Below the pieces are notes generated by a model. That model saw nothing but the letters and a program-made list of their open reading frames with translations. It did not search any database and was not told the origin of the DNA. The position numbers and the translations under genes are program-made. Shown piece by piece: positions 13,784 through 22,431 of a stretch of 64,000 bases of DNA; within the stretch, counting starts at the first letter, position 1, and each line of letters begins with the position of its first letter. This stretch comes from an uncultured Erysipelotrichaceae bacterium. GTDB taxonomy: Bacteria > Bacillota_I > Bacilli_A > RFN20 > CAG-826. The DNA lies in contig CADAIJ010000003.1 of assembly GCA_902787955.1 (NCBI GenBank), positions 13,907-77,906 of the forward strand. The letters run 5' to 3'.

Positions 13784-14347
13784 TTATTCTGTTGGGCTGC
13801 AATTATATTTAAGGGTAATGGATGTAATTATGTTAGAACCCATAAGAGTGGCTGCTGATATTGAAAAGTATTTATTCCCGTCAAGTTGACTAAATAACTT
13901 TTCTTGCCCTGCGGTTATAGGAGTAAATGCTGCAAAATCATCTAGAGAATTTCTGCCAAGAACTTGAATATTATTATACTCATATCCATTATCCTTAGTA
14001 TCGATTCTTATAGAATAGAGCGATTGGAATTCACTCTTATTTGAAATTATGCCTCCCTTATTTCCCATGAACTGAAGACCTTCGTCGACCTTAGTGAAAC
14101 AATTATTTGCATTATTTACATTAAATGTTAAAGGATTCCCGCTTGTTGTATTAACCACAAAATCAGAATTGACACTTTCAATATCATTTTTGCAGTCAAT
14201 AACAAGCGTATAAAGTGGTATATCAGCTTTAACAATATTAACAGCTTGTAATCCATTAGAGTTAGACATTGCTGCTACACCAACAGTGCCAACGACTGCT
14301 GTACATATAGCGAGTGATGCTAAGATAAGTTTCTTATGACTATTCAT
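13784..14347 (-). CDS. Secreted hypothetical protein with a signal peptide.
   Basis: The N-terminus MNSHKKLILASLAICTAVVGTVGVAA is signal-peptide-like. A perfect RBS AAAGGAGGAATTATT precedes the ATG. Confidence 0.6.
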   Translation of the reverse strand: MNSHKKLILASLAICTAVVGTVGVAAMSNSNGLQAVNIVKADIPLYTLVIDCKNDIESVNSDFVVNTTSGNPLTFNVNNANNCFTKVDEGLQFMGNKGGIISNKSEFQSLYSIRIDTKDNGYEYNNIQVLGRNSLDDFAAFTPITAGQEKLFSQLDGNKYFSISAATLMGSNIITSITLKYNCSPTE

Positions 14348-14413: not shown

Positions 14414-14432
14414 AGTGTTTCACATTGAAACT
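14414..14432. promoter_or_regulatory. Palindromic operator-like site AGTGTTTCACATTGAAACT.
   Basis: Perfect inverted repeat GTTTCA-CAT-TGAAAC, about 70 nt upstream of the 13784..14347 start codon. The same 19-mer recurs at 20462..20480. Confidence 0.5.
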
Positions 14433-14491: not shown

Positions 14492-14523
14492 ATATAAAAA
14501 CCTCGTGAATAACACGAGGTTAA
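14492..14523 (-). terminator. Intrinsic terminator ending the surface-protein/mscS transcription unit.
   Basis: Perfect 9-bp stem AACCTCGTG/CACGAGGTT with a 5-nt loop, followed on the minus strand by TTTTTAT. Confidence 0.6.
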
Positions 14524-14548: not shown

Positions 14549-15571
14549 TTACTTTTTATCATCTATATCCTTAGATAAGTCTTTTTGTTCTTCGACGAAA
14601 GCTTCGACTACTTTTCTATCTTTAACGGATAATTTAGTTTCTTCACTTCCTTGATCATAAGAAACAGTGACTTGTGGGAATGGGATATTGACATTATTAT
14701 CATCAAAGATAATCTTAATTTCTCTATTCAAATCACGTTGAACTTGATAGATATCTGTTTCCTTACATTTAGCGACGAATAAAAGAACAACTGCACTATC
14801 AGCTAATTCGGAAACACCTTTATAGAATGGTCCTTCAACAATAGCAGGGATTTTTTCTTTAATCTTGTCTAAGTTCTCAGCAATAACTTTTTCAATAGCT
14901 TCGATTCTATCGCCATAAGAAACACCAACATAACATTTAGCGACTGATAATTCTTGGGTTTGGTTAACAATGGAACGAATATCACTATTATTCATAATCT
15001 TGATATTGCCACCAGCATCAACTAATTTAGTGGTTCTAATACCGATTGCTTTAACTTCGCCTCTCCAGCCATCGATGATAACGATATCGCCAACTTGGAA
15101 ATCGCCTTCAAAGACGATGAAGATACCGGCGAGGATATCAGACACTAAAGCTTGTGAACCAAGGCCTATAATAAGAGTTAAGACACCAGCAGAAGCAAGC
15201 ATCATTGTGGTATCTGCTCCCCAAGCACCCATAATGATGAATACGGAAGCGATAGCGACCACCCATTTAAGTAAATTTAAGAGAAGTAAGGCTATTGTAA
15301 TTGTCTTCTTCGATTCAAAGGTAATCTTCGCTAAAAGGGAGAGAATGAAGAACGCTGCCGCAGCAATTACAACAATCTGAACTGTTCTAATCATTGCTGG
15401 GAACCCTCTTGTCATCATATAGTTAACAAAGTCCCCTTGTCCTTCAACTGGCACGAAGATCGTTTCACTTCCAAATATCTGTTTATTGAAGACAAATGAA
15501 ACAATAACTCCAGCGGCGAATAGTCCGAATACTATCCAGCCAATTAGTTTAATTACTTTTTTCTTTTCCAT
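14549..15571 (-). CDS. mscS: Small-conductance mechanosensitive channel, MscS family.
   Basis: Three N-terminal TM helices and a conserved MscS beta-domain region (GDxVxIDGxxGEVxxIGIRTTKL). The start was chosen at MEKKK, which is preceded by the RBS AAGGAGG. Confidence 0.8.
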   Translation of the reverse strand: MEKKKVIKLIGWIVFGLFAAGVIVSFVFNKQIFGSETIFVPVEGQGDFVNYMMTRGFPAMIRTVQIVVIAAAAFFILSLLAKITFESKKTITIALLLLNLLKWVVAIASVFIIMGAWGADTTMMLASAGVLTLIIGLGSQALVSDILAGIFIVFEGDFQVGDIVIIDGWRGEVKAIGIRTTKLVDAGGNIKIMNNSDIRSIVNQTQELSVAKCYVGVSYGDRIEAIEKVIAENLDKIKEKIPAIVEGPFYKGVSELADSAVVLLFVAKCKETDIYQVQRDLNREIKIIFDDNNVNIPFPQVTVSYDQGSEETKLSVKDRKVVEAFVEEQKDLSKDIDDKK

Positions 15572-15598
15572 AAAAAATACCTCCTTGAATACATGCAT

Positions 15599-18391
15599 TT
15601 ATCTAACGGAAAAATAATAATTTTGAATTATTGATCGAGTGTATGTGTCGGTTGCTCCCAAATCATAACTATCAAAGGTCATCGACACTGAGACTTTTTT
15701 AGTTTTTAGTAACGCTAATAATTCATCACGATATTCGTAGTCAGTAGGAACAGTAACAACGCCTTCATTAATTCCATTATTAGCGAAGTTAGAAATATCA
15801 AACGGAATGTAGTATGTAGCGGCTTCATTATTAGGATCAAATATTTTTAATTTAGTATTAGATAATTTACCGCTCATACCAGGATAACGGAATAAACCTA
15901 TGTTGAACTCAATGTTATTTGAGTAAACTGTGTCGGATTTTATATAACCACCAACATATTCATTAGTAGTTGAGCCGTTTTCTTGCATATAACCTATTTC
16001 GGTATCATTAATAATCTTTTGACCTGTTCTACTACTAGTGACGTAGAAAAAGGCGTTATTATTATCTAATGCGGTAACATCAAATCCGGTAATTTCGAAG
16101 TATTGGAAACCACTTCTCTTTTCAAGAGGGAAAGTTAATGGGTTATTTGAATCGTTATTATCGGCTAAATAGAATGTTAAATCTAAATATTCATTCGCTT
16201 TATCACTGATACTACCGGAAACACCAATATATGTCTTACTATCGAATGTGTAATATTCATAGTGGATTTGAAGGTTATTAATATGTGAAGTTTCTTCAGC
16301 CATATCAATGATGCCTTCAAATACCACGGTTCCATGATCACTATGATCATAGACAACAAGGGAATAGGTATAGACGCCATTTTCAAAATCAATAGTTGAA
16401 AAATCAAGACTACTCGCACTCTTTATTTCTCCTGATTCTGGTAAGGTCAAATAAGGGTTAAGATTAGTAGCATCACCGCCATCAATTGGAGTTAGCCAAA
16501 GTCCTACTTTTTTATAGAATCCATCCGCAAATGTATCAGTGTAGTCCATGTGCCAACTAAGGACACGCTCATCGGTACTTTCGTAAACTTTAATGCCATC
16601 AAAACTAAGTGAATTGACATGGGCTTCACGACCTTCGCTATCAACGAATGTAATGGTACCGGTAGTATATTGGGTGTATTCTCCAACTGATTCTAAAAGA
16701 TATTCAATCATAAAATTGATTGGTTCATTAGTGTTTAAAGTCATATCGGCTGTATCAGAGACATAGATATAAGTATCATATGGGCTAAATTCAGCGCTTA
16801 GATTCTTATCTTCTAGAGCTTTTTCAGGATCTGGATTATAGAAAGTGATTCTTAATCTAACTAAATCATATTCTGGATCGACATAGTCGACAGTAACTGG
16901 GATTTGATGTTCGGAAGCAGTGAAATCAATTTCATCGTCAATTACAATTGAATTAATCTTGGTTTCTTCAACGAATGTAGCGACGAATTCATAATCTTTA
17001 TCAAGATAAGAAATAATCTTCATACCAGGCTCATATTCACCGCGTCCACTCTTCCAGAATTTAAAGCGATAACCTTCTGGAGGTGTGAATGGGTTTTCAG
17101 GAAGGGTATAAGTTTTGCCTTCTCTTAATGAGATGACAATTGGATCATCGGTCGAATCACCTGGATTAAGAGTGATGTTATATTTAACTGGCGCAGTTGA
17201 AGTATCGAAAACAATATGTTGTTCATCGGTTTCTTTCTCTTCTTCAGCGTAGCGGTAGGTAATGTAATATGAGAATCCATCAGAGTCATCGAAATTAAAC
17301 TGATTTTCATCAGCTGGATCATTAAGCGTGATTGTTTGATATTCACTAGTGACAGCAAGTTCAAATCGTTTAAGATTGTTTTGGCTATCAGATAATATCA
17401 AATTGAAGTTATCGAATAGTTCATCATCATATTCACAAGCGATAAGAACTTCAAAAGTTCCATCTGATAAATCAGGCACTAAATCTAAAGTCACGGAAGC
17501 TTCATCTTCCTTGATTGTGGTTATAAATTCATCATAAATATAGGTGCCAGTAGAAAGGTTTCTAACAATAACTTCATAAGAAGTTTCAGCATTTAAACTA
17601 GTGAAATAGAATTCATTCTTTCCTTCGGTCAAGTCGTATACTTGAAGCTCTGTGCCATCACTTCTGATGCTGATATCATATGTATCTTCTCCATTACCAG
17701 TTAGATATAATCTAACACCAACTTTATTTGCCCATGGAACAAGGTTAGTAACTTTAACAGAACCTTCATCTTTTGGTTCTGGAGTTTCTTCTTTTGTAGT
17801 AACTGTATCTTCGTATAAAACGTAATTATTATAGGTAGTATCAATGACGTAAACGGAATATTCAGTGTTTGATGTCAAATCAACGAATTCACCACTATTA
17901 GAGCCTTCAATGAGTGCATTGGATACAGTATAAGATTCATTCTCAAGTTTAATAATGCACTCATCATTATTGATATCCGCTAAATCGAGTTCATAAACAA
18001 TTGAGTTTGTAGTTGTCTCAATTTGATTCATTTTACATTTAGCGTTAAAGAAAAGATTGATGCCCATTAGTGTTGATAATGTTGTTACTACCACCATTGA
18101 GGCACCTGCTACAGTTGCGATTGTTGTGCCAATAGAGGCAGAGGAGCTGCCATTAGAAGAGCCTTTATTTGAGCCATCTTCTTTCTTGGAAGACTTATCT
18201 TTTCTTTCTTTTTTCTCTTCTTTAATCTTTTTGGACTCATTTAAAACAGGATTATCATTTATTTCATCACGAAGACGATCGTCATTATCAAAGTAGGAAG
18301 TTGATTCGTTATCTTGAGTGCTTCCAAACTCAAAATTAGGATTCTTGCCCTCGTTGGTAATTCTTTCAATGTTAAATTCGTCTCGTTTCAT
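15599..18391 (-). CDS. Large type-II membrane-anchored surface protein. It has a Lys/Glu-rich cytoplasmic N-tail, one TM helix and an extracellular domain of about 800 aa.
   Basis: 930 aa. A Ser/Gly-rich linker precedes a hydrophobic TM at about residues 88-115. The remainder is rich in T, D, Y and N with no enzymatic motif. Confidence 0.6.
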   Translation of the reverse strand: MKRDEFNIERITNEGKNPNFEFGSTQDNESTSYFDNDDRLRDEINDNPVLNESKKIKEEKKERKDKSSKKEDGSNKGSSNGSSSASIGTTIATVAGASMVVVTTLSTLMGINLFFNAKCKMNQIETTTNSIVYELDLADINNDECIIKLENESYTVSNALIEGSNSGEFVDLTSNTEYSVYVIDTTYNNYVLYEDTVTTKEETPEPKDEGSVKVTNLVPWANKVGVRLYLTGNGEDTYDISIRSDGTELQVYDLTEGKNEFYFTSLNAETSYEVIVRNLSTGTYIYDEFITTIKEDEASVTLDLVPDLSDGTFEVLIACEYDDELFDNFNLILSDSQNNLKRFELAVTSEYQTITLNDPADENQFNFDDSDGFSYYITYRYAEEEKETDEQHIVFDTSTAPVKYNITLNPGDSTDDPIVISLREGKTYTLPENPFTPPEGYRFKFWKSGRGEYEPGMKIISYLDKDYEFVATFVEETKINSIVIDDEIDFTASEHQIPVTVDYVDPEYDLVRLRITFYNPDPEKALEDKNLSAEFSPYDTYIYVSDTADMTLNTNEPINFMIEYLLESVGEYTQYTTGTITFVDSEGREAHVNSLSFDGIKVYESTDERVLSWHMDYTDTFADGFYKKVGLWLTPIDGGDATNLNPYLTLPESGEIKSASSLDFSTIDFENGVYTYSLVVYDHSDHGTVVFEGIIDMAEETSHINNLQIHYEYYTFDSKTYIGVSGSISDKANEYLDLTFYLADNNDSNNPLTFPLEKRSGFQYFEITGFDVTALDNNNAFFYVTSSRTGQKIINDTEIGYMQENGSTTNEYVGGYIKSDTVYSNNIEFNIGLFRYPGMSGKLSNTKLKIFDPNNEAATYYIPFDISNFANNGINEGVVTVPTDYEYRDELLALLKTKKVSVSMTFDSYDLGATDTYTRSIIQNYYFSVR

Positions 18392-18439: not shown

Positions 18440-20392
18440 TTATTTATCTTTTTTCTTAAAGACTTTACCGACACTCTTTTCTTCAACTGGTGTCATTTCG
18501 CCTTTTCTTCTTGTTCTAATGTACCAGAACATAATTCCACCAAGGAGTAAGATTCCTAAGATGAAGGCGATAATAGTGAATGGACATGCATGAACAATTA
18601 AGACGATTAAATCTAAGATGAAGTTAGCAATTAAAGCACATGTTGCAATAAATGTTAATAAGACTTCTTTAGCGGTCATCTTTTCCTTAAACTCATCAAC
18701 CTTAGCGTTATTCTTAATTATTTTTTTATAAACATTTAATCTAAGTAAGACATAAAGTGCTGCCACTAGTGTGATTAAGATATTAATGATTAATAAGATA
18801 ACACCAATACAGAATCCGTGTGATGCACCACCTCCAGCGGCACCTTTAGTGATAAAGGCAAATTCTGATAATTTACTAACTTTGAAGACTAAATCATTTC
18901 CATCAACACTATAGTCACTTACAAATTCCATTTCATCCGCTGAATGGATGTGAAGAATTCTTGCTTTTGACATATCGATGCCATTTGGAATAGCCATGCG
19001 GACTGTAATTATTAATCCTGGTTTAATGTCAGATGGCTGAATAACTGTTTCAACGCCACCAACGATTTGGACTAATTTAACATCGTAAACACTAGCAATT
19101 TTCTCATTCTTTTCGAGCATTTGTTGGATTTTAGCGTAGTCTTCAGCTATATCTTTTTCAGCAACATCAGTTCTAACTTCTACTCTTAACTCAATGTTAT
19201 CTGGAATGACTTCGTCATCAACTTCGACAGTAACATCTGGGTTATTTGGATCGGTGACTTCGGCACCAACGATTTCAAAATCAACTGATGCTGTAGCTTC
19301 ACCAAATGTAACTTTCGCAGTGTATTTACCGACATTAATACATTCAGTTACTTCAGAACCATCTTTATAGTATTTGATTTGAGGGTTTGGGAATGCTTCT
19401 TTGTTATATCCTGATTCAAAAGTGGCTACTTTCTTAGTATTACTGAACTCTAAATCAGTAGGTGCATTAAGTGTTAATGTAAGACCTTCAGTGATTTCAC
19501 ATGGATCGGTTCCACCATTACAAGTTGCGGTAATTTTATTGCCGTCAGCAATGTAATCCCAATCATGATCGTGATTATAAGAATATGGATATCTTAATCT
19601 ACGATAAAGACCGTCATTATAATCTTGAGGTAATGGTTCATTGCCCTTGAAAAGTGTTCTTCCTTCTGTACCTGCTTCATCTGTCCATAAACCAAAATCA
19701 GCGCCTAATTCATAATGATACCTGCTAAAAACAGGGCGAATTGGAAGAACATTTTTAGACACAGCAGTCATATCAAGAGTAACATCTTTACCAAAATAGA
19801 AATAGCATTGTATAGAAGCTTCTTGGGTTTGATTCGCATAGTGACCATAAGCCACAATTGATCTAGTGGTTATTTTAACAGTTTCAGTAAATTCAAAGTA
19901 AGCATGGCAAAATGAGTAAAATGCCCAAGTATAATAATCGTGATTAGCGATAATATTTAATTCTCCATCACCTTTAATTGTCAAATTAGAACAGACAGCA
20001 ATACCATAAATTGCCCATGCTTCAGGTAATTTAATATTATTTACACCCTTCGCATTAATAGTGAACATATCGGAATCACCATAATAAAGAATTACGTGTT
20101 CAACATTGTCAAAACTTTCACCATTATAAGTAAAACTATGTTTAGGCGCTGTCGTAGAATCAAATGTATAGTTATCAAGAGTCAAAGTTGTAGTGCTTGG
20201 GTCATATGACCAGCCATCACCAGAAGTATGGTCAGATGTAACTTCTTCATCTCCGACATAAAGTTTATAGCTTACTGGATCCGCTTTAACTTCTTTAAAT
20301 TCAGCTTGATAATTAATGGCTAATGCAGCGGCAGATAATGATAAAAACGCTGTCGCAAGCGATATAACTAATCTTGATGTTTTCTTTTTCAT
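18440..20392 (-). CDS. Secreted/membrane protein with a signal peptide, a large extracellular domain and a C-terminal multi-TM anchor.
   Basis: The start was reassigned to MKKKTSRLVISLATAFLSLSAAALA, which has the RBS GGAG 9 nt upstream. The C-terminus has 3-4 hydrophobic helices. Confidence 0.6.
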   Translation of the reverse strand: MKKKTSRLVISLATAFLSLSAAALAINYQAEFKEVKADPVSYKLYVGDEEVTSDHTSGDGWSYDPSTTTLTLDNYTFDSTTAPKHSFTYNGESFDNVEHVILYYGDSDMFTINAKGVNNIKLPEAWAIYGIAVCSNLTIKGDGELNIIANHDYYTWAFYSFCHAYFEFTETVKITTRSIVAYGHYANQTQEASIQCYFYFGKDVTLDMTAVSKNVLPIRPVFSRYHYELGADFGLWTDEAGTEGRTLFKGNEPLPQDYNDGLYRRLRYPYSYNHDHDWDYIADGNKITATCNGGTDPCEITEGLTLTLNAPTDLEFSNTKKVATFESGYNKEAFPNPQIKYYKDGSEVTECINVGKYTAKVTFGEATASVDFEIVGAEVTDPNNPDVTVEVDDEVIPDNIELRVEVRTDVAEKDIAEDYAKIQQMLEKNEKIASVYDVKLVQIVGGVETVIQPSDIKPGLIITVRMAIPNGIDMSKARILHIHSADEMEFVSDYSVDGNDLVFKVSKLSEFAFITKGAAGGGASHGFCIGVILLIINILITLVAALYVLLRLNVYKKIIKNNAKVDEFKEKMTAKEVLLTFIATCALIANFILDLIVLIVHACPFTIIAFILGILLLGGIMFWYIRTRRKGEMTPVEEKSVGKVFKKKDK

Positions 20393-20461
20393 AAGAATAA
20401 TCTCCATAAATATATATTTAAGATAATATAGATTTACACATGTATAAATCTTATTAAGCAT

Positions 20462-20480
20462 AGTGTTTCACATTGAAACA
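20462..20480. promoter_or_regulatory. Palindromic operator-like site AGTGTTTCACATTGAAACA.
   Basis: Identical core to 14414..14432. It lies about 70 nt upstream of the 18440..20392 start and in the divergent region shared with the response-regulator gene. Confidence 0.5.
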
Positions 20481-20560
20481 TTTTGCTTTTTTAGCGAAGA
20501 TAACTGTGTAATAATTCTTGTCGATATATTAAATTATCAATATATAGAGGGTGAAACACG

Positions 20561-21157
20561 GTGAAACATACATTTGGTGAAGCGCTTCTAAAAGCAAGAA
20601 AACAAAAAGGATTATCCCAGCAAGAGCTTGCGGAAAGTATACCTGTCACTCGTGCTAGTGTCGCTAACTGGGAAGCAGATAGAAGACTTCCAAACGCTAC
20701 TATTATTGCTAAGATTGCTGAAGTGTTAGAAATAGATGTTAGCGAACTTCTTGATACCGCTAATAAAGATGATATTCACCCAAATGTTATTATCGTTGAT
20801 GACAATAAAATCGTTCTCACAGGTGGAGCACCAATTATTGAAAAAGCCCTTCCTAATGCGAAAGTCGCTTGTTTTACTAAGCCAAAAGAAGCGATTAAAT
20901 ATGCAAAAGAAAACCGCATCTCTTTAGCGTTTTTAGATATCGAACTCGGTTTAACAAACGGGATAGATTTGTGTAATGAGTTACTTGAAATTAACCCACG
21001 TATGAACATTATTTTCTTAACCGCCTATCCAGAATATTCGGTTGATGCATGGAACACTAAAGCGAGTGGGTTTATGGTTAAACCAATCACTTTTGAAGGT
21101 GTTAAAGAACAACTTAAGAAACTAAGACACCCATTCCCAACTGGAGGCATTATTTAA
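20561..21157 (+). CDS. Response regulator with an N-terminal XRE-type HTH and a C-terminal receiver domain.
   Basis: GTG start with the RBS AGAGGG. The HTH is LSQQELAESIPVTRASVANWE. The receiver has IIVDD...FLDIEL...K, with the phospho-acceptor Asp in FLDIEL. Confidence 0.7.
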   Translation: MKHTFGEALLKARKQKGLSQQELAESIPVTRASVANWEADRRLPNATIIAKIAEVLEIDVSELLDTANKDDIHPNVIIVDDNKIVLTGGAPIIEKALPNAKVACFTKPKEAIKYAKENRISLAFLDIELGLTNGIDLCNELLEINPRMNIIFLTAYPEYSVDAWNTKASGFMVKPITFEGVKEQLKKLRHPFPTGGII

Positions 21158-22431
21158 TGCCGGGTGACACTTTAATATATGCCTACTTTTTTATAGGCGG
21201 TGCTTTATTACTTCTTGTTTTATTAGGTTTAGTAGCCTCACTTAGTTTTCCTACTTTAGATAAAAAGAGCAAAATCTTTTTTATTTCATCTTTTTCAATA
21301 CTTGTTTTGAGTATTATCGCTTATATTATCGACTTATTTGTTTATACAAATCCTAGCCTTGCTTGGGTTGGAAAAATAATTGCGTTCTTTGAAACATTTT
21401 TACCATCTGTATTAATGCCACTTCTAACGATCTATGTTTTACTTTGCACGAAAAAAAGTATCCGTAAAAATGCCATTTTCTATATAAATATTGCCTTATG
21501 TGTGGTTTTAATAGCCTTACTTATAGTCACTCAATTTACGGATGGAATTTATTATTTTACCGACGAAAATGAGTTCGTTCGTGGTGACTTCTACTTTGTT
21601 TTAATTGTCCCGATGCTCGCGTTAATTGCCTTAAACCTTCTTCTAATTATTTATAATCGTAAGCTTCTAGATAAGATGTACTTTATCGCATTTCTTATAT
21701 ATTTAATTCCTTTATTAATAGTTATGACTTTGCAGACTTTTATTTCGGTCTTTATCCTTATTGTCTTAGCTATATCTATTAGCGCATTATCGATGTTTGG
21801 AATTATTATGTATGACCAAATAGATCAATACTTACGTCAACAAAGAGAAATAGCGGATCAACGCGCTAGTATCAAGGTGTTACAAATGAGACCTCACTTT
21901 ATCTATAACACAATGACAAGCATCTATTATTTATGTGTACAAGATCCAGAAAAAGCTCAACAAGTAACCCTAGACTTTACAACTTATCTTCGTAAGAACT
22001 TTAATGCAATAACTAGTAAAGAACCTATTCCTTTTAGTGAAGAACTTGAACATACTCGCGCTTATTTAGCGGTCGTTAAAGCTCAATATGAAGATAACCT
22101 TAAAGTGGAATTTGATACACCTCATACTAAGTTCCGTGTACCACCTTTAACTTTACAACCACTTGTTGAAAATTCCGTTAAATACGGACTAAATATTGAT
22201 TCTACTGAACCATTACGTGTTTCTATTAAAACAGAAAAAGTTGATAATGGCAGCGTTATTATCGTTAGCGATACCGGCCCAGGCATTTCAGGTGATGATA
22301 ATGGAGAACCACATATTGCTTTAAATAATATTCGTGAACGTCTATCGTTAATTAAAGGTACATTAACCATTTCACCAAATGAAAATGGGGGCACTATTGT
22401 TAGCATCTATATTCCTGATAATAACAAATAG
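21157..22431 (+). CDS. Sensor histidine kinase, LytS/YehU-like (multi-TM sensor + His_kinase + HATPase_c).
   Basis: About 6 TM helices. The H-box RPHFIYNTMTSIYYL and the SDTGPGISGDD G-box are present. Its start overlaps the stop of the RR gene. Confidence 0.75.
   Translation: MPGDTLIYAYFFIGGALLLLVLLGLVASLSFPTLDKKSKIFFISSFSILVLSIIAYIIDLFVYTNPSLAWVGKIIAFFETFLPSVLMPLLTIYVLLCTKKSIRKNAIFYINIALCVVLIALLIVTQFTDGIYYFTDENEFVRGDFYFVLIVPMLALIALNLLLIIYNRKLLDKMYFIAFLIYLIPLLIVMTLQTFISVFILIVLAISISALSMFGIIMYDQIDQYLRQQREIADQRASIKVLQMRPHFIYNTMTSIYYLCVQDPEKAQQVTLDFTTYLRKNFNAITSKEPIPFSEELEHTRAYLAVVKAQYEDNLKVEFDTPHTKFRVPPLTLQPLVENSVKYGLNIDSTEPLRVSIKTEKVDNGSVIIVSDTGPGISGDDNGEPHIALNNIRERLSLIKGTLTISPNENGGTIVSIYIPDNNK

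Follow-up and report, generated by a model that had tools for sequence, protein, structure and literature searches.

An uncultured Erysipelotrichaceae bacterium encodes, in two overlapping genes, a genuine two-component system whose family is widespread but unstudied in gut and rumen bacteria. Its 198-amino-acid regulator carries an XRE-type helix-turn-helix (HTH) domain ahead of its receiver, and its partner is a PF06580 histidine kinase with a predicted seven-transmembrane (7-TM) sensor. The reading that we favor, with confidence somewhat above even, is that the pair forms a functional system of an uncharacterized family in which the regulator acts through a palindrome, GTTTC-N5-GAAAC, by way of which it probably controls neighboring surface-protein genes. 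Bacteria rely on two-component systems as their main sensory circuits, and to our knowledge almost all that is understood of their mechanism comes from regulators in which the receiver precedes the output domain.

An XRE-type HTH domain precedes a complete receiver

The window (the whole 64,000-nucleotide stretch of DNA that we analyzed) contains the regulator gene with the following features.

20561..21157, + strand: response regulator gene; GTG start, 198 aa, single uninterrupted ORF
20573-20767, + strand: XRE/Cro-C1 HTH, aa 5-69 of the regulator
Regulator aa 70-74: interdomain linker
20783-21115, + strand: receiver, aa 75-185 of the regulator
20936-20938, + strand: codon of the predicted phospho-acceptor D126

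A preliminary description had assigned to this protein an N-terminal Cro/C1-type HTH and a complete C-terminal receiver with an acidic pocket (IIVDD), a phospho-acceptor aspartate (in FLDIEL) and a conserved lysine, and had proposed a domain search and a structure model as checks; both bore it out. In Pfam, residues 10–63 matched HTH_3 (PF01381; E 7e-14, 52 bits versus a cut-off of 23), with HTH_19, HTH_31 and HTH_26 also matching the N terminus, and residues 76–184 matched Response_reg (PF00072; E 1e-17, 64.8 bits versus a cut-off of 30.2). The receiver quintet is complete, comprising D80 and D81 in IIVDD (77–81), D126 in FLDIEL (124–129), T154 in FLTAY (152–156) and K174 in MVKP (172–175), the last of which aligns with CheY K109. 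No LytTR domain (PF04397) was matched in Pfam at E values up to 0.1, and the chain ends 13 residues past the receiver.

The AlphaFold2 model (pLDDT 87) placed five helices within residues 5–69 (5–15, 20–26, 31–38, 46–56 and 60–69), followed by a (beta-alpha)5 fold at 75–185 that superposed on solved receivers over 115–118 residues at ~2 Å rmsd; the orientation of the two domains relative to each other was predicted with low confidence (pTM 0.65, linker pLDDT ~64). The best curated-family matches of the receiver included BtsR and LytR, and the Staphylococcus aureus LytR receiver fitted the modeled one with a TM score of 0.89. The best PDB sequence matches of the receiver plus linker were PhyR-type chains (9cb6, E 2e-8), a resemblance confined to the receiver: PhyR structures differed from the regulator model by 14–15 Å rmsd overall, and the NCBIfam PhyR model covered only residues 49–184, at 44 bits versus a cut-off of 240. 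Moreover, the N-terminal domain of PhyR is a sigma-factor mimic that acts by partner switching and does not bind DNA, whereas the N terminus here is an HTH_3 domain. The N-terminal 69 residues matched stand-alone XRE proteins by sequence (E 1e-4 to 5e-4). With SinR, ICEBs1 ImmR and C.BclI the regulator shares this N-terminal sequence match, the five-helix fold and a predicted palindromic operator; those proteins, however, dimerize through C-terminal regions of their own and are controlled by antagonists or proteolysis where the present protein has a fused receiver and a kinase.

The preliminary description had also raised the prospect of a fusion artifact of two ORFs separated by a frameshift; in a broader form, an assembly error or frameshift would have joined an XRE repressor to a stand-alone receiver. 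This is refuted, and we consider it virtually impossible: the ORF is unbroken, the model is continuous with a short linker, and both domains were present in all 120 of the best homologs listed, nearly all of them ~198 aa long and drawn from independent assemblies and sources. The same HTH-then-receiver layout was found in 64 of the best 150 representatives at 50% identity, and nothing that we found spoke in favor of a fusion. Homologs have their start codon, ATG or GTG, at the equivalent position and a common N terminus, M-K-x-T/S-F-G, and the W37-E38 ... P44 motif is invariant across the family.

The partner kinase combines a PF06580 core with a seven-helix sensor

The regulator gene runs directly into a kinase gene.

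21155..21159, + strand: TAATG stop/start overlap of regulator and kinase genes; TAA 21155-21157, ATG 21157-21159, one shared base
21157..22431, + strand: sensor histidine kinase gene, 424 aa
21163-21816, + strand: 7-TM sensor, aa 3-220 of the kinase
Kinase aa 126-146: conserved outward-facing beta-hairpin in the sensor
21895-21897, + strand: codon of H247 in RPHFIYN (DHp, PF06580)
Kinase aa 337 and 372: HATPase_c boxes, N-box VENSVKYG (337) and G1 box DTGPGI (372)

The overlap noted in the preliminary description amounts to a single base, and homologous loci likewise overlap by 1 or 4 nt, an arrangement consistent with translational coupling of the two genes. The catalytic core of the kinase warrants the label 'LytS-type' given to it earlier, with residues 243–315 matching His_kinase (PF06580; E 4e-17) and a HATPase_c match behind them (E 4e-7). 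The sensor does not: residues 1–228 had no Pfam match, including to 5TMR-LYT and GAF, even at E values up to 10, and 5TMR-LYT (PF07694) was carried by none of the 120 homologs listed. Instead the sensor was modeled as a bundle of seven TM helices, which had no profile match to the 7TMR-DISM_7TM and 7TM-7TMR_HD families of Pfam. The system thus shares with LytSR, BtsSR (YehUT) and YpdAB the PF06580 and HATPase_c kinase core, but differs in having a 7-TM sensor without 5TMR-LYT and GAF, and in having an N-terminal XRE HTH where those regulators have a C-terminal LytTR output.

LytTR regulators had been described as the normal partners of such kinases, which holds in part. The nearest solved kinase and receiver domains were those of GanS, AraT and XynC of Geobacillus; GanST, AraST and XynDC, which we take to be YesMN-like pairs of PF06580 kinases and receiver-AraC regulators, indicate that LytTR proteins are not the sole normal partners, because AraC-type regulators serve as well. 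The Geobacillus regulators nonetheless place the receiver first, followed by an AraC-type HTH, and the sensors differ from the one described here.

The regulator–kinase pair is conserved across a large family

Searches returned hundreds of ~198-aa homologs with an identical domain layout, and in metagenomes from gut and rumen the XRE-receiver family accounts for thousands of clusters at 90% identity. The layout is 'uncommon', as it had been called, in a relative sense, as a minority among characterized regulators. Galperin's 2006 classification of response regulators, as cited in a review, reportedly already catalogued the HTH-receiver architecture, which is not known to have been characterized. 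Family members are already named 'response regulator' at NCBI; the searchable literature yielded no binding, phosphotransfer or expression data for any of them, and a plasmid collection contained no full-length relative.

A kinase gene directly followed the regulator gene in every one of 16 genome loci, as it did, with two exceptions, in the metagenome loci with enough downstream DNA, and the pairing extended from Erysipelotrichaceae to Ruminococcus-type, Coriobacteriales and 44%-identity members. We also found relatives with the opposite, more usual domain order, REC-HTH_3, as in DigR (P0191, P0200 and P0203 among them); this order, too, occurs next to PF06580 kinases.

Phosphorylation is not common to the whole family, since the acidic pocket, D126 or K174 is missing from some of its distant members. 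Such losses, seen in several members, and the existence of orphan regulator genes without a kinase (loci L068 and L088) would fit a pseudo-receiver that works independently of phosphorylation, in dimerization or ligand binding only, while the kinase signals elsewhere. For the protein studied here we judge this very unlikely, given that an alignment of relatives at 41–94% identity showed no variation at D126, T154 and K174 and conservation of 90% or more at D80 and D81, that the two genes overlap, and that their pairing is conserved across phyla.

A conserved palindrome lies upstream of the regulator gene and its neighbors

The intergenic region ahead of the regulator gene, and a second region in the divergent gene cluster, contain a newly found 15-bp palindrome, GTTTC-N5-GAAAC, with half-sites 10 bp apart center to center.

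20464..20480, no strand: predicted operator site 1, TGTTTCAcatTGAAACA, in the gap that separates the regulator gene from the divergent gene for the surface protein
18440..20389, - strand: divergent gene for a 649-aa surface protein with a signal peptide and C-terminal TM helices; candidate target
15599..18391, - strand: following gene, similarly oriented, for a 930-aa membrane-anchored protein of no known family; candidate operon member
14549..15598, - strand: gene for an MscS-type mechanosensitive channel, starting right where the 930-aa gene stops
14416..14431, no strand: predicted operator site 2, identical TGTTTCACATTGAAAC, centered 77 nt upstream of the 187-aa gene
13784..14347, - strand: gene for a 187-aa protein that has a signal peptide at its N terminus and belongs to no family; candidate target of site 2

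The palindrome is conserved and non-randomly placed. Of the 22 loci with at least 62% identity, 21 had it 74–102 nt ahead of the regulator start, within intergenic DNA that was only ~40% conserved. The window contains exactly two copies (at 20465 and 14417; 0.06–0.09 expected), each of them ~70 nt ahead of a minus-strand gene whose product has a signal peptide, and the two have additional flanking bases in common. At site 1 a longer, imperfect inverted repeat (20456–20470 and 20474–20488) has the palindrome as its core, and site 2 lies downstream of a terminator-like hairpin of the MscS gene (14499–14521). A counterpart of site 2 was also present in loci L007 and L107, the two-site layout recurred in loci L107–L109, and additional sites in other loci again stood ahead of genes for secreted proteins or lipoproteins.

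The 649-aa protein, which probably starts at MKKKTS behind a GGAG ribosome-binding site, had no Pfam or NCBIfam family; its C-terminal half was kept at the equivalent position in six loci (L001–L004, L008 and L014), and the large divergent proteins have a C-terminal half in common among loci. Synteny between the MscS gene and the two-component pair extended to L003, L007, L014, L015 and L107. For the 187-aa protein no homolog was detectable among the fetched loci.

We considered whether the palindrome might belong to another DNA-binding protein, or be a structural element of divergent promoters, with the XRE-receiver protein binding elsewhere. Most paralogs at 55–60% identity indeed had no recognizable palindrome within 250 nt upstream. 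Against this, the palindrome accompanied the regulator gene across loci whose other neighbors differed, and a paralogous subgroup had GTTCC-N5-GGAAC instead, at the equivalent position and with the spacing kept; all 10 such sites in 312 kb lay 76–126 nt upstream of a regulator gene, where 0.3 were expected. The 10-bp spacing of the half-sites also suits a dimeric HTH protein. We therefore rate a foreign binder or structural element as distinctly improbable, and favor the regulator as the protein that would bind the palindrome.

The recognition helix reads RSSVANWEA(D/N)RR in the GTTTC group and R(S/P)TVARWE(N/S/T)G in the others; because paralogs without a palindrome have the second helix type too, we drew no rule linking helix to half-site. 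Two other candidates were set aside. The palindrome is not a terminator, since it separates the starts of divergent genes and the stretch yielded no terminator-like site. A direct repeat at the start codon, GTGAAACAC/GGTGAAACAT (20551–20569), was examined as a source of extra operator half-sites; it was not conserved, and mostly consists of M-K-H/R codons and the ribosome-binding region.

Position of the palindrome relative to promoters

On the regulator side, a TATAAT-like −10 box lies 25–28 nt or 43–47 nt downstream of the palindrome, a spacing by which the palindrome is centered at about −49 to −68, ahead of −35 hexamers that are weak. When the surroundings of both sites were scanned for consensus promoters, there was no enrichment over shuffles, so this activator geometry rests on our reading of the aligned upstream regions.

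The same operator could instead serve a classic XRE-type repressor of the regulator's own promoter and the divergent one, with phosphorylation relieving or imposing the repression. Most characterized members of the XRE family, such as phage cI/Cro, SinR and ImmR, are repressors. In several loci, extra half-sites occupy positions typical of repression: a GAAAC right after a consensus TATAAT in L015 and L023–L025 (65–69% identity), and a GTTTCA overlapping the −35 position in L005, L010 and L013. DigR of Myxococcus xanthus, a receiver-XRE regulator, both activates and represses (PMC3509222). In every aligned locus, however, the full palindrome stood ahead of the regulator-side −35 region and not over the core promoter, and the closest relatives had poor −35 hexamers beside it. 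Repression of this kind is a serious contender that we nevertheless hold to be unlikely, and activation through the palindrome would be the more probable mode.

Proposed mechanism and relation to known systems

In the mechanism that we propose, the 7-TM bundle of the kinase and the conserved outward-facing hairpin would sense a cue from the membrane or from outside the cell. The kinase would autophosphorylate at H247 and transfer the phosphoryl group to the regulator at D126. Once phosphorylated, the receiver would dimerize and so place two N-terminal XRE domains on GTTTC-N5-GAAAC; the targets would be the system's own operon, the divergent surface-protein/MscS operon and the small secreted protein.

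Among known systems with an output domain ahead of the receiver, the fungal regulator Skn7 also has a C-terminal receiver, as PhyR does. The archaeal proteins LtrR (HTH-REC) and FilR1 (wHTH-DUF1724-REC) share this order (PMC5847659), but have other HTH types and other kinases. DigR, a precedent for the proposed mechanism, resembles the regulator described here in joining a receiver to an XRE-type HTH; it is phosphorylated by its cognate kinase, binds a palindrome, TAATC-N14-GATTA, as a presumed dimer, and has a regulon rich in secreted proteins (PMC3509222). Its domains come in the reverse order, however, the receiver leading and the HTH at the C terminus; its kinase, SgmT, is encoded elsewhere and is a soluble hybrid of the GAF-HisKA-REC-GGDEF layout.

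The XRE-receiver system overturns no principle. What it offers is a phage-repressor-type HTH ahead of a receiver, together with a kinase class otherwise known from LytTR and AraC partners, in a family that is abundant in barely studied rumen and gut bacteria. It also comes as a testable package: a predicted operator of 15–17 bp; a candidate regulon with two promoters, covering surface proteins, a small secreted protein and the MscS channel; a 7-TM sensor with a conserved hairpin outside the cell; and sister proteins whose domains come in the opposite order. Should the system be confirmed, the characterized regulators would gain a new class of output and architecture, and the system could supply compact orthogonal regulator/operator pairs.

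More tentatively, and with less than even confidence, we suggest that the family may constitute a distinct, widespread and entirely uncharacterized class of two-component systems in gut and rumen Firmicutes and Coriobacteriia, in which a GPCR-like seven-helix sensor responds to an envelope or host-derived cue and a paralog-specific palindrome code (GTTTC or GTTCC, N5) turns on genes for variable surface proteins and for a mechanosensitive channel. If so, the family would be a natural experiment: because both domain orders occur with one kinase class, the position of the output domain with respect to the receiver would not matter for control.

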